Assembly: GCA_015486215.1 (NCBI GenBank)
Contig: WFSA01000009.1
Span: forward strand, 1-13,947
DNA from: Anaerolineae bacterium
GTDB taxonomy: Bacteria > Chloroflexota > Anaerolineae > Promineifilales > Promineifilaceae
DNA length: 13,947 nucleotides
Direction: 5' to 3'
Below the pieces are notes generated by a model. That model was given only the letters and a program-made list of their open reading frames with translations. It searched no databases and was not told the DNA's origin. The position numbers and the translations under genes were made by a program. Numbering within the stretch: position 1 is the stretch's first letter; each line of letters starts with the position of its first letter. This document shows, one piece after another, positions 1 through 13,947 of the stretch.

Positions 1-1
1 G

Positions 2-1339
2 ATCGTCGATGAGTACAGGATGGAATTGCCCGCCGACGGCGGCTACCAGATCGAAATCGGCCTCTATTTGGCGGAAACAGGGCAGCGGCTGCAAGTTATG
101 CAGGGCGGACAGGCGACGGATCTGATTTTGATTGAGAAAACTATGGTGGAAACGGCCGTTGCCACAACAACAAGCACCCCTTCCACGCATACGCTCTCCC
201 TGCCACTCATCTTGAATATGCCGACGGTCACGCCATCTCCCACCCCGTTACCGACCGTCACCCCGCTGCCGACCGCCACTCCCAAGCCCGCCTTTCCCGT
301 TTATGAGGGTGCGCCGCTCGATTACGGGCAGATGGGGATACAGATGCACATTCAGCAGACATCGCTGCCTCCTCTTTTTGATCATATCCGCCGCTTGGGC
401 GTTGGATGGGTGAAGACGCAAGTGTCATGGAAATTGTATCAGCCGTATGCCGATCAATACGCAGAGGAACGATTTGCCGAATTGGATGAATTTGTCCGTC
501 TGGCAGAGGAAGCGGGCGTAAACGTGATGCTGGGGGTCTCGAAAGCTCCTGAATGGAGCCGCCCGACAACAGAAATGGATGGTGCGCCGACGGATTACGC
601 GCTATTTAGCGACTTTATGGGGGTGTTGGCGACGCGCTATCAAGGGCGGGTGGCGGCGTATGAGCTATGGAATGAGGCGAATTTGCAACGGGAATGGAAT
701 GGTGCGCCGTTGGGCGGAGATGAAGCGGCACGATTGATGCGGGCGGGGGCGACGGCCGTTCGCCAGGCGGATCCATCGGCACTGCTTATCAGTGGTGCAC
801 CGGCGGTGACGGGGATCAATGATGGGGTGACGGCCGTTGACGACCGCGTGTTCATGCGCCAGCTATTAAACGCAGGCACAGCCACTTTTGTAGACGGAAT
901 CGGCGTGCATCCTTACGGCTGGGCAAACCCACCTGATACAGAAGTCGGCACGCCCTCGCCCGCCACCAGCCATAATAATCATCCCAGCTTTTTCTTCCGC
1001 CAAACGCTGGATGAGTACGCCGCTCTGCTGAATGAATTCGACACGCCGCGCCCGCTCTGGCCGACAGAGTTCGGCTGGGCGACGTTTGACGGTTTAAACG
1101 CGGAGCCGCCCGCAGGGGTGGAGTATATGAATCAGGTGGACGAGTGGCAGCAGGCGGTTTATACGATGCGGGCGTTTGAGATGGGGCAGGAACGGCCGTT
1201 CGTCGCGCCGATGATCTTATGGAATTTGAATTTTGGCGCATATTTAGGGACGGAGTATGCTGAAGCGGGATATGGATTGCTGCGCGGAAATGGATCGGAG
1301 CGGCCAGTTTATTTGACGATTGAAGATAGCAAACCGTAA
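2..1339 (+). CDS. Clan GH-A (GH5-like) glycoside hydrolase, 5'-truncated by the window edge. An upstream domain is followed by a Pro/Thr-rich linker (aa ~45-90) and then a TIM-barrel catalytic domain.
   Basis: The ORF is open from position 2 with no in-frame stop, so the gene continues upstream of the window. It contains LWNEANL, an NE(P)-type acid/base motif, and PTEFGWA, a TE.G nucleophile motif; both are typical of GH5/clan GH-A. PTVTPSPTPLPTVTPLPTATPKP is a typical inter-domain PT linker. The stop codon is at 1337-1339. Confidence 0.7.
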   Translation: MVDEYRMELPADGGYQIEIGLYLAETGQRLQVMQGGQATDLILIEKTMVETAVATTTSTPSTHTLSLPLILNMPTVTPSPTPLPTVTPLPTATPKPAFPVYEGAPLDYGQMGIQMHIQQTSLPPLFDHIRRLGVGWVKTQVSWKLYQPYADQYAEERFAELDEFVRLAEEAGVNVMLGVSKAPEWSRPTTEMDGAPTDYALFSDFMGVLATRYQGRVAAYELWNEANLQREWNGAPLGGDEAARLMRAGATAVRQADPSALLISGAPAVTGINDGVTAVDDRVFMRQLLNAGTATFVDGIGVHPYGWANPPDTEVGTPSPATSHNNHPSFFFRQTLDEYAALLNEFDTPRPLWPTEFGWATFDGLNAEPPAGVEYMNQVDEWQQAVYTMRAFEMGQERPFVAPMILWNLNFGAYLGTEYAEAGYGLLRGNGSERPVYLTIEDSKP

Positions 1340-1647
1340 GGCGGCTCTTGGTGATAAATCTGTCGCGGTGTCGGTAACACCCCTTACAGACAAGTTGATA
1401 GAACTGTGGGAGTCTTGATGATGGGAATGATAGCATGGTTCAAATTAGGGTGAATCATCTTTGCCTTTATTGCGCGATTGGGCGACCATAAAGGAATAAA
1501 TTATAGGGGCGCGGCCTTATGCCCGCCCCCAAAGTATAAAGATCATCTTGCGTAAAATGAGCCATGTCGAATTTAGTATGGAAGCATAACGCGGATGGCT
1601 TCGCACGCGGATTTAGCGGATAAACGCGGATTTCCTGCTTTGATCCA

Positions 1648-1864
1648 CACTTTATTTTACACGAGTATCATGTAACTTCTCAATATTTCGGGATGACTAC
1701 AACGGATGAAAGAAATAAACGGATAGAGCAGTCGAGAAAACATCCGTTCATTTTCATGATCCGCTGTAGTCATACTAAAAACAAAATAATGTCCCCGCTT
1801 TTTTGAGAAGATACAGTATCATTAGGAAAATTTGTCAAGTCTCCCCAGAATACTAAGGGAAGGT
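1648..1864 (+). mobile_element. Composite MITE-like locus (copy A). A 5'-truncated type-1 element is interrupted by a nested 143-bp type-2 element. It consists of type-1 spacer/right half 1648..1671 + 1815..1864, with the type-2 element at 1672..1814.
   Basis: 1648-1671 (CACTTTATTTTACACGAGTATCAT) and 1815-1858 (AGTATCATTAGGAAAATTTGTCAAGTCTCCCCAGAATACTAAGG) together reconstitute the spacer and right half of the 112-bp element seen intact at 3871..3982 and 8468..8579. The intervening 1672..1814 has its own TIRs, GTAACTTCTCAATA ... TTTTTTGAGAAGATAC. It is flanked by a direct duplication AGTATCAT at 1664-1671 and 1815-1822. Confidence 0.65.
1672..1814 (+). mobile_element. Type-2 MITE-like element (143 bp) nested inside copy A, with an 8-bp target-site duplication AGTATCAT.
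   Basis: The TIR GTAaCTTCTCAATA at 1672-1685 matches the reverse complement of TATTGAGAAGATAC-like end ...TTTTTTGAGAAGATAC at 1799-1814. This is the same TIR as the type-1 element. The flanking 8-bp direct repeats sit at 1664-1671 and 1815-1822. A homologous segment (TAATACTTCGGGGTGAGTACAAC...CCCCAGTTTTTTGAGAAGATAC) occurs at 13594..13709. Confidence 0.6.
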
Positions 1865-1886
1865 TCGTTTTTAACTTTGGACTTTC

Positions 1887-1919
1887 AGGTGACAGGCACT
1901 TGGCAAGTGCCTGTCACCT
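1887..1919. repeat. Perfect 33-bp palindrome (15-bp arms, 3-nt centre GGC): AGGTGACAGGCACTT-GGC-AAGTGCCTGTCACCT. This is copy 1 of 2.
   Basis: Arms 1887-1901 and 1905-1919 are exact reverse complements. The second copy at 4027..4059 is identical except that the centre is GCG. Both are preceded by TTTC and followed by TTG, and both lie between a MITE copy and the start of a + strand gene. Confidence 0.8.
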
Positions 1920-1927
1920 TGGCCACA

Positions 1928-1957
1928 GTTATTTACGAGTTTTCCCTAAGAAGATAC
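1928..1957 (+). mobile_element. Internally deleted relic of the type-1 MITE, keeping a spacer fragment plus a solo right TIR.
   Basis: TATTTACGAGT ... TAAGAAGATAC resembles TATTTTACACGAGTA ... TGAGAAGATAC of the intact element. This is weak, eye-read similarity. Confidence 0.3.
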
Positions 1958-1967
1958 GATTCGATAT

Positions 1968-2300
1968 ATGAGCAAAGATAACGATACGCACCAGCATGAT
2001 GCAGAAAAAATAACACCCTTCCTCGCCCCTGAAAATATGGAGTATGTGATTTGCCCTGAATGTTACGGCAAAATGGCGAAGGATGCGCTCGTCTGCCCTC
2101 ATTGCGGCGGCACTCTCTCTGATGGCGTTCCTCATGATGATGCGCCAAAAAACAAGATGATCCATTATGTATGGATGGCTTTGATCGGCTTGGGGGCAAT
2201 TGTCATTATCGCGGGGCTTCTTATCGGTTTTGCTGGGCCGAGCATGATTATCGGCGGAATTTTGTTGTTAGCGGCATCGCTCACGAAACGGTTCGCTTGA
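1968..2300 (+). CDS. Small membrane protein (110 aa) with an N-terminal zinc ribbon (CPECYG...CPHCGG) and two C-terminal transmembrane helices.
   Basis: The ORF has two CxxC pairs 17 residues apart, followed by the hydrophobic stretches MIHYVWMALIGLGAIVIIAGLLIGF and MIIGGILLLAASL. It lies downstream of the MITE plus palindrome leader. I see no obvious SD, so the start assignment is tentative. Confidence 0.55.
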   Translation: MSKDNDTHQHDAEKITPFLAPENMEYVICPECYGKMAKDALVCPHCGGTLSDGVPHDDAPKNKMIHYVWMALIGLGAIVIIAGLLIGFAGPSMIIGGILLLAASLTKRFA

Positions 2301-2331
2301 TAAAAGCAAGTATTGCTCGCTATGCGTGCAT

Positions 2332-2391
2332 AAAAAACGGCCGTTTTTACTTCTCAGCCAAGATAGCATTGGGCGACCCAGCGGGTCGCCC
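2332..2391. terminator. Two palindromes in the gap between the convergent genes 1968..2300(+) and 2415..3851(-). They are AAAAAACGGCCGTTTTT (2332-2348) and a GC-rich hairpin GGGCGACCC-AGC-GGGTCGCCC (2371-2391). Together they are a candidate bidirectional terminator.
   Basis: The 9-bp GC stem with a 3-nt loop lies 20 nt past the minus-strand gene stop. The A6-CGGCCG-T5 palindrome gives a U-tail on either strand. Neither is a textbook stem plus U-tract on its own. Confidence 0.35.
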
Positions 2392-2414
2392 CTACGGGGG
2401 GGGAATATGTCCAT

Positions 2415-3851
2415 TTATTTAACGATAATGGGCAGATAGACCTCTCTTGCTTCTATGAAAAAGTGAGCCGGGCGGCTCCACGCGCCGGAGATCGTGTCAG
2501 ATTTGGCACGAATCCACCACGCGTACTCCCCTTTTGGCAGAGCGGTGGAGACGGTGTAGGAGCAGTTCTGGGTTGCGTTTTCGCAATGGGCGGCAACGGC
2601 CGTTACTTCACTTTGCCCGTAATCGTGTCCCCAATTGTACGTGCCATCGGAATTGACGGCGTATAGTTGGAATTCGTATTGAACGGCCGTTGTGATCGCC
2701 TCCCATGTCACGGCAAACGAGTCGCCATCCTGGGAAATATGCTTGCTGGGCGTAATCAACACCGAAGCGGGAAGCTCATTATCGTAATCGTCACAATGAT
2801 CTTTACGAGGATTGCCGCCTATATCGCAAGGGTAATCGGATGATTGGCCGGGGATAGGGCGAGGGTCATCAGTGGAAATGAGATCGTTTAATGCTCCCAT
2901 CTCGATCTGCTGGTCGCTGCCATCGCCTAAAGCGATGAGTCTGCCGCTTTCGCTGCCGTTAAATGTGTAATCAGCCAACGCATCAATCAAACGGAAAACG
3001 CCGTAATCATCCATAGCATCGAATGTACCATACCCGCCGTTACCAGTGGCAATCACTCTATGATCGGCGGCGTAATCATACCCGTTCGCGCTGCTGGGGC
3101 GCAGGATGACATACTCTTTTGCGGTATCGGCGATCGTGCCTACGCTCTCAAATTGGTCAATATAGGTGCGATAGTCGGTGCCACAATCATTTTCATAGGT
3201 TTGTACGATCATTTTGACATCGGATGGGTAATCGGCCAGCATCACATCGGTGCTGTCAAAATCGATCCATGGAGCCGAAAAGAAGAGGAACGCATTTTCG
3301 CCGTCTGTGCCGCCAAATCCATACTCCCGTATCATCGTATAGCTGACTGAGGTGAGCAGCCCGCCGCCAGAGGAGTGTCCGATCAGGCCGAATTTATTTT
3401 TATCAATGCGTGTTGGATAGAGGTCGGCCGTCCGCGTGAACACATTGGCAAGCTGCGAGCCAATGGTGGCGGTATTTGTGGTGTATTCGTCACAAACGGC
3501 CGTGTACCCCTTGCTGACAAGAAAGTAGAGAAGCTCATCATAAGAAGCACAAGGCATGTTCCAGCCGACAGCAAAGAATAGTACCGGCGCAGGTGACATT
3601 TGGTCACTGGGATAGTAGATGGTGACAGTATTGCTATCACCATCAACATCCATCGAGAAGGTGCTGGTCATGGTATCATGGCTGCCCCAACTGCCATACC
3701 CTGCGGCAATCGGCGCGATTGGCCCCTGATGGGGCTGCCTCAACGATATTAAGGCGAAGGTAAGTAATGTTGTCCCCATAATGAGGGGGAGGATGAGGAT
3801 AAAAATAAGTTTGGGGAAAGATTTGGAAAAAGACATTGTTATAATTTTCAT
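2415..3851 (-). CDS. Secreted or membrane-anchored alpha/beta-hydrolase. It is a GxSxG serine esterase/lipase resembling the PETase, chlorophyllase and dienelactone-hydrolase families, with a C-terminal FN3-like beta-sandwich domain.
   Basis: The N-terminal hydrophobic signal/anchor is KLIFILILPLIMGTTLLTFALISL. The nucleophile elbow is GLIGHSSGGG. The C-terminal ~100 aa (FAVTWEAITTAVQYEFQLYAVNSDGTYNWG...YTVSTALPKGEYAWWIRAKSD) resembles a fibronectin-III-type domain. The 478-aa ORF has no competing frame. Confidence 0.75.
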   Translation of the reverse strand: MKIITMSFSKSFPKLIFILILPLIMGTTLLTFALISLRQPHQGPIAPIAAGYGSWGSHDTMTSTFSMDVDGDSNTVTIYYPSDQMSPAPVLFFAVGWNMPCASYDELLYFLVSKGYTAVCDEYTTNTATIGSQLANVFTRTADLYPTRIDKNKFGLIGHSSGGGLLTSVSYTMIREYGFGGTDGENAFLFFSAPWIDFDSTDVMLADYPSDVKMIVQTYENDCGTDYRTYIDQFESVGTIADTAKEYVILRPSSANGYDYAADHRVIATGNGGYGTFDAMDDYGVFRLIDALADYTFNGSESGRLIALGDGSDQQIEMGALNDLISTDDPRPIPGQSSDYPCDIGGNPRKDHCDDYDNELPASVLITPSKHISQDGDSFAVTWEAITTAVQYEFQLYAVNSDGTYNWGHDYGQSEVTAVAAHCENATQNCSYTVSTALPKGEYAWWIRAKSDTISGAWSRPAHFFIEAREVYLPIIVK

Positions 3852-3870
3852 AGGATATTTAGTATCTTCT

Positions 3871-3982
3871 GTATCTTCTCAATAAATCGTGGACAAGACT
3901 TGACAAATTTCATCAGCACTTTATTTTACATGAGTACCATTAAGAAAATTTGTCAAGTCTCCCCCGAATACTGAGAAGATAC
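3871..3982 (+). mobile_element. Intact 112-bp type-1 MITE-like element (copy B) in the divergent promoter region between the hydrolase gene (-) and the sensor kinase gene (+).
   Basis: The TIR GTATCTTCTCAATA at 3871-3884 pairs with TATTCGG...TACTGAGAAGATAC ending at 3982. The internal 14-bp inverted repeat is GACTTGACAAATTT (3897-3910) and AAATTTGTCAAGTC (3946-3959), separated by a 35-bp spacer. A tandem partial duplicate GTATCTTCT sits immediately 5' at 3862-3870. It is the same element as 8468..8579 and 13503..13596. Confidence 0.75.
3900..3927 (+). promoter_or_regulatory. Sigma70-like promoter module inside MITE copy B. It is TTGACA-N16-TATTTT and reads toward the sensor kinase gene.
   Basis: A perfect -35 TTGACA at 3900-3905 is followed by a 16-nt spacer and TATTTT at 3922-3927, which keeps the conserved T1, A2 and T6 positions. 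The same module is present in copies C and D. In every copy it points at the adjacent gene. Confidence 0.35.
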
Positions 3983-4026
3983 CCTAATTTCGATAAAATA
4001 GATCAAATAAAGCTACAGGGGTTTTC

Positions 4027-4059
4027 AGGTGACAGGCACTTGCGAAGTGCCTGTCACCT
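4027..4059. repeat. Perfect 33-bp palindrome, copy 2 (centre GCG): AGGTGACAGGCACTT-GCG-AAGTGCCTGTCACCT.
   Basis: Arms 4027-4041 and 4045-4059 are exact reverse complements. Apart from the 3-nt centre it is identical to 1887..1919. It lies 45 bp downstream of MITE copy B and ~57 bp upstream of the kinase start codon. Confidence 0.8.
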
Positions 4060-4080
4060 TGAATTATTCGTATACCCCCC

Positions 4081-4116
4081 TCTACAAACGGCCGTCTTCA
4101 TGCTACAATGCTCCCA
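4081..4116 (+). promoter_or_regulatory. Candidate extended -10 promoter (TGcTACAAT at 4101-4109). Its predicted transcription start falls on the A of the kinase ATG, giving a leaderless mRNA.
   Basis: TG-n-TACAAT ends 7 nt before ATG 4116. The -35 region 4081-4086 (TCTACA) is weak. There is no SD before 4116. This is inference only. Confidence 0.25.
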
Positions 4117-6767
4117 TGATGCCCGCCCCCTATTTGAGCTATATTGATTTCAACCCCTACACATTCAACGCTGTCTCCCTATTTATCATCGGCTCACTCA
4201 GCGTTATCTATCTGCTGCGCCTCCAAAAGAAAACCGCCGCCTCGTGGTTCCTCATCACCAGCTTAGCCAGCTTCACGGCGGGCGTGATAGTCATGTTCTT
4301 CAGCGCCATCATCCTTTGGGGCGGTGTTTTGGATCTGTTCACGGACACCTTTGCCACCATCAGCATGGCCGCTCTGATCGGCTTTAACTACCATTATCCA
4401 CAACAAGTTACCTCCCGCGAGGCTGGTTTCGCACGTTTTTTTGCCGTCAGCATTAGCTTAACGGCCGTTATCATCAGCAGTTGGTATACGTGGCAAATTT
4501 ACAGAGTACATGCGTTTACAACGGCCGTTTCCCCCCTATTTTGGTTCCTGAATCCACTCATGTTTCTGGCCGCCCTGCTCGTCTCCATCCGCCGCGTCAT
4601 CATTATCGAACAACAAAAAACGGCAGCGGCAGGCTGGCATCATGCGTGGCTCGCCTTCTATCGGCCATCCCATCGTCAGGCGCGTTTATTGCGTAATTTC
4701 TCGTTAGCCTTATCGTTGGGATTGATACAAGGCATCGCCACTGGATTGAGCAGGACTGGACATATCTCGTCCCTGACGGCCGTTTACGCCATCAATCTCT
4801 CCCTGCTGCTGATGGTGGTTACCATCGTCTACGCCTCCTTTGAACTGACACAACAGCAGCCCGGTCTGATCATCCGTTTATTAGGACTTTCCCTGACGAC
4901 CTTATTACTGATTTTGGGCATTTTGGGCATATTTATGGTCAGTACCGCCATTGATTGGGTAAACATGCAAAACATCGCCTACACGAAAGTTGTGCAAAAA
5001 GTGGTTCGCGCTGACGAAACGGCCGCCTTGCCCGATGAAGTCGCCTACGTCGTCGCGTGGCCTAACGCGAAGACGGCGCAGTTGCTTTATGACAAACAGG
5101 GCACAATGGATATGCCATCCCTGATCGCCGAACAACAGCAAATAACGGCGAGAACGCTACCGCCCGCCGTCTGGATATCATTCATCCAGCCGCTCCTCCA
5201 CGCAGAAAACAGCACAACGGCCGTAAAATTCCGTTACGGATCAAACCCGCCCGGCTCTTGGCACCAATACGCCGCCTACACCTTTCGCCACGCTGGGATG
5301 GAGTACGAAGTCGGCTTCAAGTTGGCTGAGATGCGCCGCTTCCCCCGCGCCGTCAGCGTGGTTATGATTTGGGCGGTGATGTGCAGCACTCTCTTCATTC
5401 TCATCATTTTTCCGCTTTTTTTTAACGCTGATTTGATACGGCCATTAAACCGTTTGCTCGCTGGCGTGCAACAGGCGGATGACGGCGATCTAAACATCGC
5501 CATCCCTGTGGTACATGAAGATGAAGTCGGCTTTTTAACGGCCGCTTTCAACAAAATGGCCGCCTCATTACAAGATGAACTGACACAGCGACAACGCGCC
5601 CAAACAGAGTTACGCCATCTTGCCGATTCATTGGAGCGGCGCGTTGCCGCCCGTACCTACGAGTTGAGCGCATTATATGATGTTACCAAAGCGGCCAGCC
5701 AAGCACAAGATTTTCCCGCCTTGCTAACCGCCTCCCTCAACAGTGCCATCCGCGCCCTCAGCAGCGACGCTGGGTTTATTATTCTGACAGATGAAGAAGG
5801 GGTATCGCCGCACGCCACCTACCATCTAGCCACCCATCAAGGGATCGGCGATTGGCTGCCCCTTATTCAAAAAACGATTACCAACGGCGACTTTCTAGAA
5901 ATCATCAACCAACAAGACAAAGAACCCGTCCTCATCGCCAATACGTCCGCAGACCTACGTGCCCCGCATTTCATGCAGCTTATGCCGACGACGCTCCTCA
6001 TCGCGCCGTTATCGGCTGGAGAGCAGTTGTCGGGAGTGCTGATCGTCTACCGTGCTTTAGGACAAAGTTATAGCTTAAATGAGATTGCGCTGCTCATCTC
6101 AATCTCTGGACAACTGTCCATCGCCGCGCAAACAGACCGTCTGCGCCAACGCACCATCGTTTTGGAAGAGCGGCAGCGGCTCGCCCGCGACCTGCATGAT
6201 TCTGTCATCCAATCGCTTTATGGGCTGGCAACATTGACTGAAGTGGGAAAAATGCACGCCGCCGACGGAAATCTGGAGCCGATTGTGCCTATGTTCGCCA
6301 AAATCAGTAAGGCAGCACGGCAAGCGATTCGGGAAATGCGGCTGTTTATCCATCAATTGCGCCCGATGATTTTGGAACAGGAAGGGTTAGCCGACGCGCT
6401 GGAACTGCGGCTAACGGCCGTCGAAGGGCGTTCAGATGTGCAAGTGCGCCTGCAAGCCGATCCCGACCTGCGCCTGCCGCTGCCACTGGAAACCGCGCTC
6501 TATCAAATCGCGCAGGAAGCCCTCAACAACATTTTGCGTCACGCCCACGCGGAAACGATCATTATCACGCTGCACGGGCAAAACGGCCGTTTCATCCTAG
6601 AAATCCAAGACGACGGGCGCGGATTCGACCCGAATAAGGTTGACAACGGCCGTTTAGGGTTGAACAATATGCGGGCACGGGCGAAAGAGATTGGAGCTGA
6701 GTTTGCCATCACCTCCGCGCTCGGCATCGGAACCAAGATAAATATTGTGGTACATTATGACCCATAA
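4116..6767 (+). CDS. Sensor histidine kinase of the NarL-partner (HisKA_3) class. The N-terminal region has ~10 transmembrane helices and a ~130-aa extracytoplasmic loop, followed by HAMP, coiled-coil, GAF, HisKA_3 and HATPase_c domains.
   Basis: The H-box is ERQRLARDLHDSVIQSLYGL (HisKA_3 type). HAMP-like RPLNRLLAGVQQADDGDLNIAIP...GFLTAAFNKMAASLQDEL is present. A GAF-like segment (ALYDVTKAAS...GVLIVYRALGQ) follows. The ATPase has the N box QIAQEALNNILRHA and the G boxes DDGRGFD and GLGLNNMRARA. I prefer ATG 4116/4119 over the listed 4029, which lies inside the 33-bp palindrome. The stop codon at 6765-6767 overlaps the downstream regulator start. Confidence 0.85.
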   Translation: MMPAPYLSYIDFNPYTFNAVSLFIIGSLSVIYLLRLQKKTAASWFLITSLASFTAGVIVMFFSAIILWGGVLDLFTDTFATISMAALIGFNYHYPQQVTSREAGFARFFAVSISLTAVIISSWYTWQIYRVHAFTTAVSPLFWFLNPLMFLAALLVSIRRVIIIEQQKTAAAGWHHAWLAFYRPSHRQARLLRNFSLALSLGLIQGIATGLSRTGHISSLTAVYAINLSLLLMVVTIVYASFELTQQQPGLIIRLLGLSLTTLLLILGILGIFMVSTAIDWVNMQNIAYTKVVQKVVRADETAALPDEVAYVVAWPNAKTAQLLYDKQGTMDMPSLIAEQQQITARTLPPAVWISFIQPLLHAENSTTAVKFRYGSNPPGSWHQYAAYTFRHAGMEYEVGFKLAEMRRFPRAVSVVMIWAVMCSTLFILIIFPLFFNADLIRPLNRLLAGVQQADDGDLNIAIPVVHEDEVGFLTAAFNKMAASLQDELTQRQRAQTELRHLADSLERRVAARTYELSALYDVTKAASQAQDFPALLTASLNSAIRALSSDAGFIILTDEEGVSPHATYHLATHQGIGDWLPLIQKTITNGDFLEIINQQDKEPVLIANTSADLRAPHFMQLMPTTLLIAPLSAGEQLSGVLIVYRALGQSYSLNEIALLISISGQLSIAAQTDRLRQRTIVLEERQRLARDLHDSVIQSLYGLATLTEVGKMHAADGNLEPIVPMFAKISKAARQAIREMRLFIHQLRPMILEQEGLADALELRLTAVEGRSDVQVRLQADPDLRLPLPLETALYQIAQEALNNILRHAHAETIIITLHGQNGRFILEIQDDGRGFDPNKVDNGRLGLNNMRARAKEIGAEFAITSALGIGTKINIVVHYDP

Positions 6768-7434
6768 AACAGTCCCCTCCCCCTCCCCCACGCTGCGTAT
6801 TTTAATCGCTGACGACCACGCCATCGTCCGCGAAGGGCTGGAAGCGGTGATCGCCACCCAGCCAGATATGGCATTGGTGGGAACGGCCGTAAACGGAGTA
6901 GAAGCCGTCTCTCTAGCCGCACAGCTAAATCCCGACATGATCCTGATGGATTTGATGATGCCCCAGTTGGACGGATTAGCCGCTATTCAACAAATAACAA
7001 CCGCCAATCCAGCCGCCCGCATCCTCGTTCTCACCAGCTTCGCCGACGATGAACGGCTCTTTCCGGCCATCAAAGCGGGCGCGATGGGGTATCTGCTCAA
7101 AGACACCCTGCCCGCCGACCTGCTGCAAGCGATCCGCAATGTCGCTCAGGGAGAAACGTCCCTGCACCCGACCATCGCCCGCCGCATAATTCAAGAAATC
7201 CAACAGCCAGCCGCAAAAACGGCCGTTCCCGACCCCCTGACCGCCCGCGAAATGGAAACACTGCGCCTCATCGCTCGCGGCCTCACCAATAGGGAAATCG
7301 CCGCCGCGCTCACCATTCACCCCAAAACCGTCGCCAAATACGTCAGCACCATCCTGCAAAAACGGCACTTAGCCAACCGCACCCAAGCCGCCCTCTACGC
7401 ACTACGCGAAGGATTAGCCAGTTTAGACGAGTAA
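6757..7434 (+). CDS. NarL/FixJ-family response regulator with a REC receiver domain and a LuxR-type HTH.
   Basis: RILIADDHAIVREGL...MILMDLMMPQLDGL has the acidic pair and the phospho-acceptor Asp. LTAREMETLRLIARGLTNREIAAALTIHPKTVAKYVSTILQK is a LuxR/GerE HTH. ATG 6757 (MTHKTV...) overlaps the kinase stop, suggesting translational coupling. The alternative in-frame ATG 6745 gives MWYIMTHK. Confidence 0.85.
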   Translation: MTHKTVPSPSPTLRILIADDHAIVREGLEAVIATQPDMALVGTAVNGVEAVSLAAQLNPDMILMDLMMPQLDGLAAIQQITTANPAARILVLTSFADDERLFPAIKAGAMGYLLKDTLPADLLQAIRNVAQGETSLHPTIARRIIQEIQQPAAKTAVPDPLTAREMETLRLIARGLTNREIAAALTIHPKTVAKYVSTILQKRHLANRTQAALYALREGLASLDE

Positions 7435-7511
7435 TACACCGCTGCATACTATTTTCCTGATGGGATCAAAAGGTCAATTTCTTGAAGAAGTTGCCCTTTT
7501 TGGCGTGAGAA

Positions 7512-7553
7512 CTGGGTATAAATACCCACTCCAAAAGGCATCATTCTCCCCTA
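7512..7553 (+). promoter_or_regulatory. Conserved ~42-bp motif containing the palindrome GGGTAT-AA-ATACCC (7514-7527), followed by CACTCCAAAA...CATTCTCCCCT. This is copy 1 of 2.
   Basis: The second copy at 10185..10226 is CTGGGTAAAAATACCCACTCAAAA...TCATTCTCCCCTGTC. The palindromic core is conserved as 5-bp arms GGGTA/TACCC around 4 central A/T bases. It lies 78 bp downstream of the regulator stop and 134 bp upstream of the LamG gene ATG. Confidence 0.5.
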
Positions 7554-7653
7554 TCCATCGGGTATCGCCCCTTGTTACCATATAATGCATCCATTTATCG
7601 TACGGCAAAGTATGTGGGCAACGGCCGTAGTATCATTACAAGGAGCAGTAAGA

Positions 7654-8457
7654 ATGAAGAAAAAATGGTCAAACTCATTTTTATTATGCATATCATTAGT
7701 ACTACTCACTGGATCAAGTCTCATCAACGGGGAGTATTTCACCGCCAACATCGCCTTAGTCAACGCCAATGAGTCTGCCCAGCAAGGAGCGGTTGCATAC
7801 TGGAAGTGCGACGATGGATCGGGAACCGTCGCCAGCGACAGTTCTGGCAACGACCACGATGGAACTCTGGTCAGCACGACATGGACATCCGATGTCCCTC
7901 CCACCAGTTATGACAACCCCTCTGCCCTGCAATTTGATGGAGCAGACGATTATGTATTTGTGCCGGATGCTTCCGAATTACGCATCTCAAATAACTTTAC
8001 GTTGGCATTTTGGTTCAAATCAGGTTCGACAACGCAATCAGGTAAATATCTGTTGGCTCGGAATAGTACTGCCGCCAGCGATCAAATCGCCGTCATCTAT
8101 GAATACACAGAAGATGTGATTGAATTTTACGTGCAGGGATACAGTGGAGAGAATCCACGTTCTGGATCACAACTGCCTTTGGCAGACACAGAGTGGCATC
8201 ATATAGCGTATACCTACGATGGCACAACTTGGGCTGGGTATGTAGACGGTGTGCAAAAATTTGCAGTTTCCCGATCGTTTCTCTTGCCCACAGATGCTTT
8301 GGACGGCTGGTATATAGGTGCTGCCAGCACCATCACATCAGGACGTGTAAATGGCCGTATGGATGATGTGCGTATCTACCTCCATGCGCTCTCACCCATA
8401 GAAATCCAGATACTGACTGCATCCGACGCTGTTTACCTGCCTCTTGTCCTAAAATAG
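7654..8457 (+). CDS. Secreted LamG_3 / concanavalin-A-like lectin-fold protein (267 aa) with an N-terminal signal peptide.
   Basis: AAGGAG lies 8 nt upstream of ATG 7654, so I prefer this start over the listed 7585. The signal peptide is MKKKWSNSFLLCISLVLLTGSS. LamG_3 hallmarks are ALQFDGADDYVFVP, FTLAFWFK, WHHIAYTYDGTTWAGYVDG and MDDVRIYLHALSPIEI. Confidence 0.75.
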   Translation: MKKKWSNSFLLCISLVLLTGSSLINGEYFTANIALVNANESAQQGAVAYWKCDDGSGTVASDSSGNDHDGTLVSTTWTSDVPPTSYDNPSALQFDGADDYVFVPDASELRISNNFTLAFWFKSGSTTQSGKYLLARNSTAASDQIAVIYEYTEDVIEFYVQGYSGENPRSGSQLPLADTEWHHIAYTYDGTTWAGYVDGVQKFAVSRSFLLPTDALDGWYIGAASTITSGRVNGRMDDVRIYLHALSPIEIQILTASDAVYLPLVLK

Positions 8458-8467
8458 AAAATATGCC

Positions 8468-8579
8468 GTATCTTCTCAATAAATCGTGGACAAGAGTTGA
8501 CAAATTTCATCAGCACTTTATTTTACACGAGTATCATTAGGAAAATTTGTCAACTCTCCCCAGAATACTGAGAAGATAC
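8468..8579 (+). mobile_element. Intact 112-bp type-1 MITE-like element (copy C) between the LamG gene and the lipoprotein gene.
   Basis: The TIRs are GTATCTTCTCAATA (8468-8481) and TACTGAGAAGATAC (8566-8579). The internal inverted-repeat arms here are GAGTTGACAAATTT and AAATTTGTCAACTC. Relative to copies B and D this is a compensatory C>G / G>C pair. The flanks AAATATGCC (left) and AATACGCCC (right) look like a degenerate 8-bp target-site duplication. Confidence 0.75.
8497..8524 (+). promoter_or_regulatory. TTGACA-N16-TATTTT promoter module inside MITE copy C, reading toward the lipoprotein gene.
   Basis: TTGACA is at 8497-8502 and TATTTT at 8519-8524. This is the same module as in copies B and D. 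The lipoprotein ATG is 123 bp downstream and has a strong SD. Confidence 0.35.
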
Positions 8580-8646
8580 AATACGCCCATTAAAAAATTC
8601 GGGACTCGTTTCCCTCTAGCTCTAGCTATCAATAAAGGAGAAAACC

Positions 8647-10053
8647 ATGACTACAAGAAAAACTGTCTATATTTTTATATTTACCCTTCTTGCACTATCT
8701 ATCGCCGCTTGTAAATCAGAACAAGAAACGGACGATACGGCCGTTGCCGTTTCAGTTGCCCTGACACAAACAGCAGTTGTGCCGACAGCAGCAACGGCCG
8801 TTGCCCCAACCGTCGCCCCAGCCATAATTTCAGTTGAGCCGACAGAGCCGACAAAGCCGACAGAAGAAACGGCCGTGCCGACAGAAGCAGCCGAATCCCC
8901 AGCCGAAGAACTCGGTTTCATCACTGGCAGGGCGCATTTAATGGCTCCGCCAACACCTTCTTTAACCATCTACGCCGTCAATATCGCAACTGGCGAATGG
9001 GTTTCTGTAGACACGGCCGAAGCGGATGGCGAAGCTGCCTATACGCTGGAACTACCGTCAGGCTCCTATCATGTATTTGCTTCCTACGGCTTGGGCTACT
9101 CATCTGACAATAAAGGGTTAACTCCTGTCGTTGTCAACGCAGGGCAAACAACAACAGATATTACACTCTCTCCCCCTTCCCCATCCGATTGCGGCCCGAT
9201 GTTCGGCATTCCCGCCTCTCCAGATGGAGCGTATGCGGAAATTCCCGGCCCCTCAGAAGAATGTTCGTCATCTTCCGCCGCCCCAGCCCCAGCCGAAACC
9301 GAAGCAACGCGCATCCAATTCGCGCCCGGAGATGATTCTGCCCAGATTTTTGGCGACATCCTCCCTCATGGAGTTGACCATTACCTGATAAGCGCAGCGG
9401 CCGGGCAGGAAATGACAGTGAATGTTGATGTATTTGAAGACAACCCGATAACCCTCGCTATCGCAGGCGCAGATGGAACAATCCTCAATCAATACGATAC
9501 AGATACCACCACATGGACGGGCATACTTCCCTCTACACAAGAGTATTACATTGATATTCTCTCCAGATACGATCAAACGAGTATTGATTATGCGTTGGTA
9601 GTAATGATTCGCACGGTAGAAGAGACGAATAGCAGCTATCAGCCGCCCTCTCCATCAATCTGTCAAATTATTCAAGAGACAGCAAACGAGGCTGTCCCAG
9701 CCACCTTTACGCTGGAGTCCAGCGCACCTTTTATAGACCCCTCATCTGGAGAATCAGGGCTGGGATGCAGCTTGACGACAACTGGGAACGGGGTTGATTT
9801 TTCCAGCCCTAACGATGTAATAACCAGCTTGGTACACGCCTTTATCGGATGGGAGGAACAAGCGGCATATCAGGCGGATGGGCCGACTGGATCGGCAACG
9901 GGAATGACCCGCGATATGGGCTTGCTGTTAATTAACGCAGAGTGGGAAGCGGCACCAGAAGTACAATGTCCCTCAGATCAACCCATATCAGCTTGCAGCA
10001 TCAATCCAGAACAAAAACTATACACCATTCATATACAAGTCGCGCAAAAGTAA
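8647..10053 (+). CDS. Lipoprotein with a Pro/Thr/Ala-rich linker, a CarboxypepD_reg-like beta-sandwich domain and a PPC (pre-peptidase C-terminal)-like domain. Its function is unknown.
   Basis: AAGGAG lies 8 nt upstream of ATG 8647. The signal peptide carries a lipobox (LLALSIAAC, Cys22). The linker is low-complexity PT/A-rich (VAPTVAPAIISVEPTEPTKPTEE). ITGRAHLM...IYAVNIATGEWVSVDTAEADGEAAYTLELPSGSYHVF resembles a carboxypeptidase regulatory-like fold. ATRIQFAPGDDSAQIFGDILPHGVDHYLISAAAGQEMTVNV...YYIDILS resembles a PPC domain. Confidence 0.8.
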   Translation: MTTRKTVYIFIFTLLALSIAACKSEQETDDTAVAVSVALTQTAVVPTAATAVAPTVAPAIISVEPTEPTKPTEETAVPTEAAESPAEELGFITGRAHLMAPPTPSLTIYAVNIATGEWVSVDTAEADGEAAYTLELPSGSYHVFASYGLGYSSDNKGLTPVVVNAGQTTTDITLSPPSPSDCGPMFGIPASPDGAYAEIPGPSEECSSSSAAPAPAETEATRIQFAPGDDSAQIFGDILPHGVDHYLISAAAGQEMTVNVDVFEDNPITLAIAGADGTILNQYDTDTTTWTGILPSTQEYYIDILSRYDQTSIDYALVVMIRTVEETNSSYQPPSPSICQIIQETANEAVPATFTLESSAPFIDPSSGESGLGCSLTTTGNGVDFSSPNDVITSLVHAFIGWEEQAAYQADGPTGSATGMTRDMGLLLINAEWEAAPEVQCPSDQPISACSINPEQKLYTIHIQVAQK

Positions 10054-10115
10054 AGAGCGGCAACAGGACGATTACACTCTCGTCTTTTACAGAAAATTGA
10101 GTTGATCTTGTTTTG

Positions 10116-10176
10116 AAATTGGACACTGATCACACTGATTTCACTGATTTTTATCTGTGCAATCAGTGTCCAATTT
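10116..10176. promoter_or_regulatory. 15-bp inverted repeat (AAATTGGACACTGAT / ATCAGTGTCCAATTT) enclosing three direct CACTGAT repeats at 9-bp spacing. It is iteron-like and possibly a terminator.
   Basis: The arms are at 10116-10130 and 10162-10176. CACTGAT occurs at 10124, 10133 and 10142, with a reverse-complement copy ATCAGTG at 10162-10168. It sits 63 bp after the lipoprotein stop and ~85 bp before the receiver ORF. The RNA stem would end in AAUUU/UUUUG. Confidence 0.45.
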
Positions 10177-10184
10177 TGCAAGAG

Positions 10185-10226
10185 CTGGGTAAAAATACCC
10201 ACTCAAAACCCACTCATTCTCCCCTG
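10185..10226 (+). promoter_or_regulatory. Copy 2 of the GGGTA-N4-TACCC motif (GGGTAAAAATACCC at 10187-10200), 68 bp upstream of the ATG of the receiver ORF.
   Basis: See 7512..7553. A possible -10 TATATC lies at 10240-10245. Confidence 0.5.
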
Positions 10227-10260
10227 TCAAAGAGAGGTGTATATCTGCTAATTTTGTAGT

Positions 10261-10632
10261 ATGAACACAAAACAGATCACCATCCTCATTATCGCACCAG
10301 CAGGACGTATGGCCGACACGCTTTCTGTGTTATTGAAATCCAATACTCAGATCACGCTGCTCGGCCAAATTGCCGATCCAGATGTCGGCCTGCGTCTGAT
10401 TGTTGAACGCCAGCCCGATGCTGTGATCATAGACGCAAATTTACCCGACAATGCCGTTTGGCCGCTTTTATCACAATTAAAAACGGCCGTTCCCCACACC
10501 CGCCGCTTCGTTCTGATCCACTCATCCCAACAAAGAAAACAGGTCAAAACCACAGGTGCTGACACTATATCCGCATCTGAATGTAATGCTAAAAAATTGT
10601 TTTTAGGAATGGGAATTTTATCTTCTCAATGA
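10261..10632 (+). CDS. Atypical receiver (REC)-like single-domain protein, 123 aa. It may be a MITE-truncated response-regulator remnant or pseudo-receiver.
   Basis: ITILIIAPAGRMADTLSVLL...PDAVIIDANLPD has a REC-like fold signature and a conserved Asp at the DANLP position, but the N-terminal acidic pair (DD) is replaced by AP. The last 4 codons and the TGA (10618-10632) lie inside a decayed MITE TIR (TTATCTTCTCAATGA). I see no SD. Confidence 0.45.
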   Translation: MNTKQITILIIAPAGRMADTLSVLLKSNTQITLLGQIADPDVGLRLIVERQPDAVIIDANLPDNAVWPLLSQLKTAVPHTRRFVLIHSSQQRKQVKTTGADTISASECNAKKLFLGMGILSSQ

Positions 10633-10696
10633 AAGGGCAAAAGAGCTGATAGATTTCATCAAAGCCTCTCAATTTACACGAGTACCACAAAAAAAC
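10618..10696 (+). mobile_element. Decayed type-1 MITE relic (copy E), keeping the left TIR and part of the spacer.
   Basis: TATCTTCTCAAT...GATTTCATCA...CAATTTACACGAGTACCAC resembles GTATCTTCTCAAT...AATTTCATCA...TTATTTTACACGAGTATCAT of the intact element. The right half is missing and replaced by the 118-bp inverted-repeat element at 10697. Confidence 0.4.
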
Positions 10697-10814
10697 CTAG
10701 TTCTAGCGGATTTTGTTGCTGCCTGATTTGATGCCATTTTAAAGCAATACTCGCGTCATTTTTGGACGAAATTTACTATCAAAAACTATCAGCAACAAGA
10801 AACGCTAGAACCAG
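10697..10814. repeat. 118-bp element with ~25-bp imperfect terminal inverted repeats (CTAGTTCTAGCGGATTTTGTTGCTG / CAGCAACAAGAAACGCTAGAACCAG). It is a possible second MITE type inserted into the relic E spacer.
   Basis: The arms 10697-10721 and 10790-10814 are reverse complements at ~21 of 25 positions. The insertion point in relic E, just after CACGAGTA..CA, corresponds to the type-2 insertion point in copy A. Confidence 0.35.
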
Positions 10815-10985
10815 ATAAATTACTCCTTTATCAATACTGTTTTTGTACAGCGTACAAGGATATTATCCGCAGATTTCACAGATCGACGCAGATTAAAAAA
10901 GGTTAAAAATCTGCGCCAATCTGCGGATCGTTCTTCACCCAATTCCAAACACAGAATTGATCGGCTGGAAAACAGCCGTTCTCCT

Positions 10986-12770
10986 CTAGCTATCGCTCTT
11001 ACTCTTACTCATCTGCTCACGCAGAACCATCGCCAACAACCCATCCACCATCCCGTTCCCCCCGCCCTGTCCACTCTGGACAGCGATGTCAGGAATAATG
11101 CGGACATCCTGCTCGCCGATGATCTGCATGAGTTGAACGGCCGTATACCCATCACCCCCCAGCGCTTCCACGCCCACCCGGTACGCATCCGCCTGCGCCT
11201 GCCCCATGCTGCGAATCGCTTCCGATTCACCCATTGAGCGCAACTTGATCGCCTCAGCATCACCTTCCGCCTTCTTTACCGTAGAATGCGCTTCCAGTTC
11301 AGCGATTTGCACCCCTTTCTCAGAGCGCACCATCTCGTGCTGAATGTCAGCCATCGAAGTTGCCCGCACGAGCAATTGCCGCTGCTCTTGCGCCATCTGC
11401 TGCACCTCATACGTCTTACGCTCTTCCTCCGCGATCTTGCGGTCAGTTTGCGTAACCATCAGCTTTTCGGGCGGCGTAATGTCGCCGATCAGCGTGTCAA
11501 TCGCCTGCACATCATACGCGCTGATGGCGGTACGGATATGCGAAGCCGCTTCCGCTTGCCGCTCACTGCGTGCGCTCAAAAAGTCCAATACCGTGTATTC
11601 CTGCGCCGAGTTGCGGAAGTAGTTGCCGACAATCGGCTGCAACACATGGTCAACCAGATTTTGCACTGCACCCACGCGGGAAATCACCTTTGGCGCGTCG
11701 AGCGCACCGATATGGATGATTTGGGCGACATCCAGATTGAACGCAAAGCCATCTTGCGAACGCACCGTAATCGGGGCTAAACGGGTGTCGTATGAATGTT
11801 CTTCCGTCCGCCGCGCCCAGTTCAAGACAATATTGGTCGTCGGTACTAATTCAATTTTTAAGATGCGTGTGTTCAACGGATGCTTGCCCGGATAAAGCGG
11901 CGTAACCCACACCCCTTTGTGTCCCGGATCAACTAAATTGCCATGACGGAAGCCGGCCCCGCTCACGTCCTGATGCACTTTGCCGACGAAGGCGATGACG
12001 ATACCAACGTGACCAATCGGTATTTCAGTCATCCGTACTTGTTCCACATTAACAAACCACGGGTTCAGATTCCATGCGCCAGAGAGCAAAATCTGCTCTT
12101 GCAAGCCGCGACGGCCGTTGTTATTGAGGAACTTTTGCGGCTCTTGGAAATTCTCATGGTCAAAAACCGTCTGCCCCGCAATTTCGCCCTCATCAATAGG
12201 TGCGCCGTCTAAAGCGGTGATGATGCCAACCATGTCGGAGGCAATGGTATACACCTGCAACTGTTGCGGGGTCATGTGATATGATTCCGCATTGCTGGCG
12301 GTGATGACAGAAAACAAGGCGGTGTTAATGCGATAGATGCCAGCTGTCAGGATGTCCAATTGCCGCCCTTTTTCGCCGCCATTCAGCAGAAATTTTTCCG
12401 CATTCTGGAAGCTGTTGCATTCCACAACCTGTCCTAAAATACGGCTGGGAGGGGGCGTTCTGCCGTCAGCAGCCACAATAAGCCCAATCTGCCCTTGCGG
12501 AATGCGAATGACGGGTACTTTTTTCACCGAGAACCGCCACGGATGGAAGCCGAAGTGCCAGCCAGGAGACAAAGTTGCCGCCTGATAGCCAGCTTCCCCT
12601 TTCAGGGCAATATGCCTGCCCGCCGCCAACGCGGGGCCAAGCTTCTTAACGACGATGCCCACTTCCCGCTCACCAATGATCACCAATCCGAACAGGGATT
12701 TACTGAAGATAACAACGAATACTAAAATGATTAGGCCGACGAAAACGGCCGTTACTGCTATGTTAAACAT
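10986..12770 (-). CDS. Flotillin-like SPFH (band-7) domain membrane protein of the YqiK/FloT family, ~594 aa.
   Basis: The N-terminal TM is MFNIAVTAVFVGLIILVFVVIF. The SPFH core is GIVVKKLGP...IRIPQGQIGLIVAADG... and continues to ...FNLDVAQIIHIGALDAPKVI. The C-terminal region is Ala/Glu/Gln-rich coiled-coil (EAAS...QMAQEQRQLLVRA...ELEAHSTVKKAEGDAEAIKL). GGAG lies ~9 nt upstream of ATG 12770, so I prefer this start over the listed 12851. Confidence 0.8.
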   Translation of the reverse strand: MFNIAVTAVFVGLIILVFVVIFSKSLFGLVIIGEREVGIVVKKLGPALAAGRHIALKGEAGYQAATLSPGWHFGFHPWRFSVKKVPVIRIPQGQIGLIVAADGRTPPPSRILGQVVECNSFQNAEKFLLNGGEKGRQLDILTAGIYRINTALFSVITASNAESYHMTPQQLQVYTIASDMVGIITALDGAPIDEGEIAGQTVFDHENFQEPQKFLNNNGRRGLQEQILLSGAWNLNPWFVNVEQVRMTEIPIGHVGIVIAFVGKVHQDVSGAGFRHGNLVDPGHKGVWVTPLYPGKHPLNTRILKIELVPTTNIVLNWARRTEEHSYDTRLAPITVRSQDGFAFNLDVAQIIHIGALDAPKVISRVGAVQNLVDHVLQPIVGNYFRNSAQEYTVLDFLSARSERQAEAASHIRTAISAYDVQAIDTLIGDITPPEKLMVTQTDRKIAEEERKTYEVQQMAQEQRQLLVRATSMADIQHEMVRSEKGVQIAELEAHSTVKKAEGDAEAIKLRSMGESEAIRSMGQAQADAYRVGVEALGGDGYTAVQLMQIIGEQDVRIIPDIAVQSGQGGGNGMVDGLLAMVLREQMSKSKSDS

Positions 12771-12810
12771 AATTACTCCATATGAAAGATAACCTACTTC
12801 TAATCCCGCG

Positions 12811-13338
12811 CTATGAAAGCCTCGAGAACTGTTGTTGAATGCGTGTAACAATCATTCTTGCCTCAGCTTCTTCCACGCCGTCACCAAAGCGGTACGTTTT
12901 TGCCCCATAATCAAAAGTGATAGGGCCGTCCATCCTGTATATCATGCCTATAGAAGCACGTCCTCTACGCACTCGAGGTCTATCAACAACACGCAAATTC
13001 GATATGGACGCACAATCAAATGATCTCGTATGTCCGACACCCCATATCTGCCGCCGTATATGAAAAAGATCATAATCCACTTTGACAACCTCTTTCCCCA
13101 GCAGCATCCACAACAGTGACAGTATCGAAGAAAGGCCGACTAATCCCCATATCAATATAAACGGCCCGCCCTCAACCATTGTCGAAAACTCAAAAGTGAA
13201 GGCAAATGCCCAAAACATCAGCCATATTGGCAGAAACATCAATAATGACCACTCTTTACGGCTGGGTATGATAAATATTAGTTGATTGCCAAACTGCTCA
13301 ACATGATGTCGAGCAACTTCCGGCTGTATTACGGACAT
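12811..13338 (-). CDS. Small membrane protein (175 aa) with 2 TM helices and a C-terminal ~90-aa soluble domain. It is co-operonic and upstream of the flotillin gene and may be NfeD-like.
   Basis: GAGGAG lies ~9 nt upstream of ATG 13338. The hydrophobic segments are LLMFLPIWLMFWAFAFTF and FILIWGLVGLSSILSLLWMLL. It lies 40 bp upstream of the flotillin start. The NfeD assignment rests only on the known yuaF-floT / yqiJ-yqiK gene pairing. Confidence 0.6.
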   Translation of the reverse strand: MSVIQPEVARHHVEQFGNQLIFIIPSRKEWSLLMFLPIWLMFWAFAFTFEFSTMVEGGPFILIWGLVGLSSILSLLWMLLGKEVVKVDYDLFHIRRQIWGVGHTRSFDCASISNLRVVDRPRVRRGRASIGMIYRMDGPITFDYGAKTYRFGDGVEEAEARMIVTRIQQQFSRLS

Positions 13339-13502
13339 AAAAAAAACTCCTCTAGCTTACAGATCATATTCGTAGGCTTAACGAATATATTTGACTGTCA
13401 TTCCTGCCTTCGCTGAGCCCGCCCTCGTCGAGATGGGGGAATGACAAACCGTTAAGTTTACAACAATGCTTACAGATAGATGCACGAATAGAAGCCGCTT
13501 TG

Positions 13503-13709
13503 GTATCTTCTTAGTATTCTGGGGAGACTTGACAAATTTTCCTAATGATACTCGTATAAAATAAAGTGCTGATGAAATTTGTCAAGTCTTGTCCATAATA
13601 CTTCGGGGTGAGTACAACAAATCAAGAAAGGAATAAATTGCATCAGTCGAGTCAACCTGCTCTTTTCCAAATCTGCTGTACTCATGTCCCCAGTTTTTTG
13701 AGAAGATAC
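13503..13709 (-). mobile_element. Chimeric MITE-like element (copy D) in reverse orientation, flanked by a perfect 9-bp target-site duplication GCCGCTTTG. It is a type-1 body (13503-13596) fused to a type-2 3' portion (13597-13709).
   Basis: The left TIR is GTATCTTCTTAGTATT and the right end is TTTTTTGAGAAGATAC. The 9-bp direct repeats are at 13494-13502 and 13710-13718. The internal inverted repeat is GACTTGACAAATTT / AAATTTGTCAAGTC. The segment 13597-13709 matches the type-2 element 1690-1814 in the same way (AATACTTCGGGGTGAGTACAAC...CCCCAGTTTTTTGAGAAGATAC). Confidence 0.7.
13558..13585 (-). promoter_or_regulatory. TTGACA-N16-TATTTT promoter module of MITE copy D on the minus strand, reading toward the NfeD-like/flotillin operon.
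   Basis: On the minus strand, TTGACA is at 13585-13580 and TATTTT at 13563-13558. The predicted leader to ATG 13338 is ~210 nt and contains a 9-bp-stem hairpin (13396-13404 / 13438-13446). Confidence 0.3.
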
Positions 13710-13947
13710 GCCGCTTTGTCGTTAAGACAAAACGGCCGTTATCACGATCTCTATCCAGAGTGATATGGTTGCAGAATGGGGCTAACTGTATGCGAAGGTA
13801 CGCAGAACAGAACGGCAAAGCCGCCCAAGTCAGCAATATAGAACTCCTATTATAGGGAATACGGGGGGATGTGACAGTAACGGGTCACATCAAATAGGCA
13901 CTTTTGGTTTCATAACCAATCTATCCTCCACCGGGTCTTAGGGAAGG

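Follow-up and report, generated by a model that had tools for sequence, protein, structure and literature searches.

Paired changes in the inner stem of a miniature foldback transposon family from an Anaerolineae bacterium

The Correia elements of Neisseria are distinguished by a TA duplication, 26-bp terminal repeats and an IHF site, and Correia/NEMIS elements, which can carry promoter-like boxes, are transcribed as hairpins. They belong to the foldback MITEs found beside genes, and the bacterial MITEs with terminal inverted repeats (TIRs) also include Chunjie from Geobacter, with direct repeats of 9 bp, and Nezha from cyanobacteria (reviewed in PMC3184786). The bcr1 elements of the Bacillus cereus group are mobile repeats of approximately 155 bp in which compensatory changes maintain a double-stranded structure (PMC3184786). 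Compensatory changes in the hairpin have also been reported for REPINs, doublets of REP sequences that are moved by RAYT transposases (PMC3116915). Compensatory hairpin changes in miniature mobile DNA are thus already known, from both REPINs and bcr1.

The DNA analysed here, referred to as the window, is a stretch of 13,947 nucleotides (positions 1–13,947, forward strand, of contig WFSA01000009.1 in the Anaerolineae bacterium assembly GCA_015486215.1). A preliminary description of this DNA had assigned a repeat in it, here called family F1, to the MITEs, and this identity is borne out by terminal inverted repeats, target duplications of 7–9 bp and many dispersed copies. Like Chunjie and Nezha (PMC3184786), F1 is small, A+T-rich and intergenic, has TIRs, flanking direct repeats and a very stable predicted foldback, and lacks a transposase. 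It differs from them in sequence, in the phylum of the host and in its duplications, which are 7–9 bp and mostly 8 bp long. Duplications of 7–9 bp also set F1 apart from Correia/NEMIS with their TA duplication. With bcr1 it shares compensatory changes in the hairpin of a mobile repeat; transcription has been shown for bcr1, whereas F1 is known from sequence only. REPINs resemble F1 as small mobile DNA in which two conserved inverted ends enclose a variable spacer and which can form a hairpin, in the case of REPINs in ssDNA or mRNA (PMC3116915). REPINs, however, are built of G+C-rich REP palindromes and are moved by a tyrosine (HUH) transposase with no duplication of the target, whereas F1 has plain TIRs and duplications. 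A REP or REPIN identity was ruled out by the G+C content of the element (35%), its plain terminal repeats and its 7–9-bp duplications, and an origin as an IS200/IS605-derived palindromic element by the combination of terminal inverted repeats and target duplications. A known structured RNA family was ruled out as well, as the window held no Rfam 15 match. F1 is an ordinary bacterial MITE of an undescribed family, and within limited literature coverage no description of an Anaerolineae MITE was found.

The change that drew attention to the family lies in copy C, which has the second-best score with nhmmer and the covariance model alike. Its parts in the window are as follows.

8460–8467, no strand: left target-site duplication of copy C, AATATGCC, matching the right flank AATACGCC at 7/8 positions
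8468–8579, plus strand: MITE copy C (family F1), complete, 112 nt, from GTATCTTCTCA to TGAGAAGATAC
8468–8478, plus strand: left terminal inverted repeat (outer stem), GTATCTTCTCA, common to the families F2 and F3
8493–8507, plus strand: left arm of the 15-bp inner stem, with the variant G at 8496
8497–8524, plus strand: promoter-like match TTGACA-16-TATTTT reading toward the downstream gene, 10/12 consensus positions
8508–8542, plus strand: spacer of 35 nt, the loop of the foldback and the most variable region between subfamilies
8543–8557, plus strand: right arm of the inner stem, with the variant C at 8554
8569–8579, plus strand: right terminal inverted repeat, TGAGAAGATAC
8580–8587, no strand: right target-site duplication of copy C, AATACGCC

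The 14-nt arms of copy C are GAGTTGACAAATTT (8494–8507) and AAATTTGTCAACTC (8543–8556), against GACTTGACAAATTT and AAATTTGTCAAGTC in copies B and D. The mirrored change is thus real: a C-G pair has become G-C, and palindromy is kept across the 35-nt spacer. The preliminary description had placed the right-arm variant correctly at 8554, but the left-arm variant, given as 8495, is G8496 and was off by one; likewise, its range of 8491–8556 ends correctly but starts 3 nt ahead of the left arm at 8494. The 14-bp inverted repeat that it described stands and can be extended by a 15th pair, A8493 with T8557, to the 15-bp central stem of a foldback comprising the whole element. ENA contig L002, an independent assembly whose start falls inside copy C and which disagrees with the window at only 2 of 5421 positions, has the same right-arm C; an assembly error is therefore excluded as the source of this right-arm variant. 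The left-arm G is present in other F1 copies too.

Just upstream of copy C lies a gene with a Laminin_G_3 domain (7585–8457), which is missing from the otherwise syntenic region of L003, a relative of 92% protein identity; this places copy C at the border of a strain-specific segment. A 48-nt direct repeat, AGAACTGGGTATAAATACCCACTC...CATTCTCCCCT, is found approximately 30 nt upstream of this gene and of a second one (starts at 7585 and 10261; repeats at 7508–7555 and 10181–10228). It contains a small palindrome, GGGTATAAATACCC, is conserved in L003 (4470–4515) and may be a shared promoter or operator.

The other copies in the window, together with the further members of the sister families F2 and F3 at locus L033, are listed below.

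1639–1671, plus strand: copy A, spacer fragment, left arm lost
1672–1814, plus strand: F2 MITE of 143 nt, inserted within the copy A spacer and flanked by the 8-bp duplication AGTATCAT
1815–1857, plus strand: right half of copy A, including right arm AAATTTGTCAAGTC; another insertion interrupts the terminal repeat, the end of which continues at 1947–1957
3871–3982, plus strand: F1 copy B, whose arms at 3897–3910 and 3946–3959 are of the consensus type C...G
10618–10694, plus strand: old, diverged F1-like copy with the left arm GAGCTGATAGATTT, truncated on the right, orthologous to L003:6790–6896
13503–13709, minus strand: copy D, a 207-nt chimera with an F3-type left part fused to an F1 inner and right part
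L033, 1704–1845: second copy of F2
L033, 5351–5473: F3 element

Copy A thus retains the right arm only. In copy D the arms, on the minus strand, are GACTTGACAAATTT (13588–13575) and AAATTTGTCAAGTC (13539–13526). This copy joins an F3 element that lacks its right terminus to an F1 element that lacks its left one, and it is flanked by a perfect 9-bp duplication, CAAAGCGGC (13710–13718 and 13494–13502); the fusion has therefore transposed as one unit. The homology of the old copy with L003 ends at approximately 10694, where another palindromic element starts.

The genome is crowded with several small foldback repeat families. The insertion that splits the right terminal repeat of copy A (1858–1946) bears a perfect 33-nt palindrome, AGGTGACAGGCACTTGGCAAGTGCCTGTCACCT (1887–1919), which recurs just after copy B at 4027–4059 (within 4023–4061), where it overlaps the predicted GTG start of a histidine kinase ORF. 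An end related to this insertion, GGGAAGGTTCG..., is also found at the end of L002. Other, unrelated palindromic repeats are located at 10697–10814 and 10116–10176 in the window and at 4599–4700 and 970–1010 in L003, examples being CTAGTTCTAGCGGATTTTGTTGCTG with its inverted partner and AAATTGGACACTGATCACACTGAT / ATCTGTGCAATCAGTGTCCAATTT. A palindromic octamer, ACGGCCGT, often present as AACGGCCGTT, occurs 27 times in the 13.9 kb against 0.24 expected, in genes and spacers alike (for instance at 152–159, 4088–4095 and 13732–13739). Its density is 0.6–2.7 per kb in L002–L004, which include the 92% relative L003, and in L030–L033, and zero in 17.5 kb of L034. This overrepresentation resembles the HIP1 phenomenon of cyanobacteria, and no description of the octamer was found in the literature.

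More distant F1 copies were sought through element peptides, one frame being open through the element, which were queried against a protein collection. This retrieved seven miscalled ORFs, four of which yielded DNA: loci L030 and L031 from the NCBI MAG GCA_027076705.1, and L032 and L033 from the ENA assembly ERZ23495180. Copies were then located in the window, in L030–L033 and in L003 by nhmmer and a covariance model. Altogether 14 copies were aligned, from approximately 74 kb of related sequence in the window, L003 (the 92%-identity relative), the MAG and the ENA assembly; further fragments exist outside the alignment, and the peptides reveal at least three more F1 loci. The sample is small, with only about five independent arm events among the 14 copies. 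The public gene calls in question, P0092–P0098, are 96–125 aa long, run through MITE copies and are almost certainly spurious.

Other searches added no copies. The covariance-model search gave no further F1 copy, its extra matches being other palindromic elements, and a peptide search with the frames of divergent subfamilies gave none either. Among the matches listed from a search of genome contigs with a spacer-only seed there was one chance match, to a cyanobacterium, and no further copy; the 23 loci that a different spacer seed matched in metagenome contigs all lacked the F1 element. Viral DNA searches returned unrelated phage operators or no match, and not the F1 element. The operator-like matches are a paired 16-bp palindrome, TTGACAAATTTGTCAA, with its two copies approximately 40 nt apart, in the viral contigs L005 (8460–8514) and L006 (7754–7806); they share only that word with the MITE and are otherwise unrelated to it.

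The anatomy of F1 is that of a non-coding transposable unit. The longest open frame through its 112 nt is approximately 40 codons and matches no family, and there is no transposase gene. The 11-bp terminal inverted repeats, GTATCTTCTCA and TGAGAAGATAC, are perfect in most F1 copies, and the same termini enclose different inner palindromes in F2 and F3. Perfect target duplications flank the F2 elements of the window and of L033 (8/8 each), copy D (9/9) and the F3 element of L033 (7/7); two F1 copies, copy C and L031a, have near-perfect ones (7/8), and none was seen in six F1 copies. The flanks of the 14 aligned copies are unrelated to one another. L003 has no F1 copy at sites B and C, where the flanking DNA is rearranged as well, and no F1 copy was found in L034, a 68% relative. 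In the loci examined, no pair of termini lay 1–2 kb apart as in an autonomous element, and no cognate transposase was found. Rearranged F1 copies occur at L031 952–1191 and at L033 54–144 and 2033–2088; such forms include a head-to-tail pair separated by AATAAAT, a copy in which a right-end fragment, directly repeated, stands in place of the left end, and copies that are truncated or nested.

The element can fold back as one long interrupted hairpin, in which an asymmetric middle part separates the 11-bp outer stem from the 15-bp inner stem. Folding as ssDNA and as RNA had been proposed as a check in the preliminary description, and on either strand it gave a whole-element hairpin with z-scores of −4 to −11 that no shuffle reached. 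Minimum free energies were −29 to −54 kcal/mol for RNA and −14 to −30 kcal/mol for DNA.

Among the 14 copies, 97.4% of the cells of the inner helix are paired, which was reached by none of 500 shuffles. Four of the 15 pairs have changed on both sides (2/500 shuffles), as have five cells (0/500), and the covariation score of the inner helix is 0.095 against a shuffled mean of 0.046 (0/500). Controls in which the partner columns were slid gave at most one pair changed on both sides. On the strength of these four measures, the palindromy of the inner stem is maintained and not accidental. Within the young F1 family no other part of the element is as conserved as the arms. That they remain paired where the spacer diverges heavily, and that F2 and F3 enclose other inner palindromes between the same termini, speaks for conservation of structure and not of sequence. 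In L033c (L033:1924–2037), with the arms GACTTGACAGGTTT/AAACCTGTCAAGTC, two adjacent A-T pairs have become G-C (conditional null, p about 0.001), and its spacer differs from the consensus in 15 of 37 columns. In the old copy of L003 (6790–6896) one T-A pair of the consensus is replaced by C-G, and the position that varies in copy C holds G.T. The T, G and A in the left arm of its orthologue in the window (10618–10694) complement the right arm in L003 exactly at the three mismatches of the latter, and judging from the two orthologues the ancestral old copy probably read GAGCTGATAGATTT / AAATCTATCAGTTC.

Two independent point mutations that happened to fall at mirrored positions of copy C would leave the same arms behind. 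The F1 copies differ by 1–5%, and single uncompensated arm changes do occur (L030a, L032b and L033a), in keeping with such a coincidence. A mirrored complementary pair has, however, a probability of p = 0.022 in copy C alone, given one change per 15-nt arm, and the covariation across the family exceeds that of the shuffles; moreover, copy C and its sister copy at L030 differ at the mirrored base and nowhere else. Coincidence is therefore highly improbable, in agreement with the preliminary description, which had considered chance parallel mutation unlikely.

That sister copy (L030:721–832) differs from copy C at 1 of 112 positions, the mirrored right-arm base, and is in the uncompensated state G.G. 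By simple arithmetic, a lone difference would fall on this base by chance in approximately 1/112 of cases, or 1/336 with the base specified. The left-arm G is encoded at two further loci, as judged from peptides P0095 and P0096, so that this variant (G31) is present at no fewer than four loci, with the G.G mismatch at one or more of them (L030). L030 could have reverted or been converted by a consensus copy, and the derived state could be that of L030 or that of copy C.

A second uncompensated change, C to T in the left arm, gives T.G (T36.G86) at two separate loci, in L032b and L033a. Perfect pairing is therefore not required for spread, given that G.G and T.G copies are found at several loci. 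The covariation check asked for in the preliminary description thus gave a divided answer: the arms co-vary beyond shuffles, but uncompensated arm changes are found as well. The observation that it had named as counting against a maintained hairpin, arm changes that are usually uncompensated, applies in part for young copies, with G.G in L030 and T.G at two loci. As for the resident old copy, the sequences of the window and L003 are approximately 83% identical over it and 95.8% identical over the adjacent gene; pairing is lost at three stem positions in L003, and the copy in the window is truncated. The old copy has thus decayed at a roughly neutral rate, and no sign was seen of the host selecting for the hairpin at any one locus.

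Compensation may also arise by a mutational route. Quasipalindrome template switching, documented in E. coli, turns an imperfect inverted repeat into a perfect or more perfect one in a single replication event (PMC7202029). In L032c (L032:5835–5944) the left middle part reads CAGTATTCTGG in place of CAATAAATCGTGG and so mirrors exactly the right end of the same copy. This involves several substitutions and a 2-nt deletion, all of which create complementarity, and is therefore a single templated event. Such a multi-base mirrored conversion points to intrastrand template switching, which would restore symmetry without selection. The outcome in L032c is the same as that of the E. coli mutations (PMC7202029), and copy C may have reached its state by this route too. 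Template switching is a process of mutation known from E. coli reporters and not an element family, and its action in F1 is deduced from the sequences. Starting from a G.G copy, it would produce the arms of copy C or those of the consensus. The asymmetric middle segment is unconverted in most copies; templated correction is therefore not frequent. The preliminary description had interpreted the pattern as that of a selected hairpin, which agrees with the covariation of the arms and the foldback, but in view of the conversion in L032c selection is not the only route to compensation.

The hairpin might instead act at the RNA level, in processing, stability or translation, or the element might serve the host as a promoter module for the downstream gene. 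In keeping with this, all six copies located between two genes on the same strand (copy C, L031a, L032b, L032c, L033a and L033c) are co-oriented with them (two-sided binomial, about 0.03). The right ends of the F1 copies are mostly 17–165 nt upstream of a start codon, with one approximately 510 nt away, and the sigma-70-like match TTGACA-16-TATTTT is present in copies B, C and D, each with 10/12 consensus positions. The stable RNA fold and two wobble intermediates (T.G and G.T) are compatible with pairing in RNA as well. The wobble-type mismatches, however, have no strand bias, and strand-specific wobble was rejected as evidence for RNA. A transcript from TTGACA-16-TATTTT would begin in the spacer and lack the left arm, and the divergent copies L033c and L003x have kept the stem but not the promoter-like −10. 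Further points against this reading are the four copies that are upstream of no gene, the absence of Rfam 15 matches in the window at the family gathering score, and the decay of the old copy relative to its adjacent gene, with the truncation and the loss of three stem pairs described above. An action in RNA or as a host promoter is accordingly possible but unlikely. A more far-reaching version, in which the Anaerolineae-like lineage has recruited F1 as a promoter and 5'-leader module, inserted one way 17–165 nt before start codons and bringing along the TTGACA-16-TATTTT promoter and a hairpin that stays paired because its RNA or DNA structure tunes many genes, is rather doubtful; if it were true, the tuned genes would include several two-component systems. 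The 6/6 co-orientation hints at a transcription-related constraint that lies outside the best explanation.

The arms could also be half-sites for a protein, either a subterminal transposase site at each end or the target of a dimeric regulator, with co-evolution of site and protein. The inverted repeats of insertion sequences usually contain an inner binding domain, and the conservation of the arms above all other parts of the element in the young family would suit a binding site; palindromic TTGACAAATTTGTCAA operators do exist in phage contigs, though in unrelated elements. A change in one half-site would, however, not be repaired by a mirrored change unless the protein changed too, and yet copy C, L033c and consensus copies, all with the same outer termini, are found together in a single genome or sample. 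F2 and F3 share these termini without the arm sequence of F1, and their inner stems are unrelated to it. With arm centres 49 bp apart and a spacer of 35–37 nt, the arrangement is a poor fit to a rigid dimer. The dimeric binder suggested in the preliminary description thus fits poorly, with half-sites that vary between subfamilies, and recognition of the arms by a protein seems improbable.

The explanation that we favour, with a probability of roughly 0.55, is that F1 is a MITE mobilised in trans whose arms pair when the element is single-stranded, and whose symmetry is kept by template switching and by propagation of paired lineages. It starts from the observed MITE anatomy, covariation and foldback potential, the uncompensated sister copy and the one templated multi-base conversion; what we infer is that the single strand in question is DNA and not RNA, and how much weight falls to templated correction as opposed to selection. 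Copy C is one copy of a 112-bp non-autonomous TIR transposon in an uncultured Chloroflexota or Anaerolineae-like bacterium, a host placement to which the names carried by homologous proteins also point. A transposase supplied in trans would move F1 and generate the 7–9-bp target duplications, and it probably recognises the outer 11–20 bp or so (GTATCTTCTCAA...) that are common to F1, F2 and F3 of this genome. The arms would matter by pairing with each other in the single-stranded element, which may be the lagging-strand template or an intermediate of transposition or repair. Symmetry may be kept up in two ways: intrastrand template switching (quasipalindrome correction) would copy one arm onto the other, and well-paired lineages would leave more descendants. 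For copy C itself this suggests that G8496 was inherited from the G subfamily and that C8554 is a secondary change which restored pairing.

The current understanding of MITEs is unchanged by the findings on F1. On a practical level, F1 repeats break metagenome assemblies, as in contig L002 with its start inside copy C, and result in spurious short protein calls. What the analysis adds to a poorly studied, uncultured lineage of the Chloroflexota is an undescribed MITE superfamily, in which F1, F2 and F3 share one set of termini. Furthermore, a single family shows all the steps in the evolution of a hairpin stem, from a mismatched intermediate and its compensated sister to deeper compensated subfamilies and a templated multi-base conversion.
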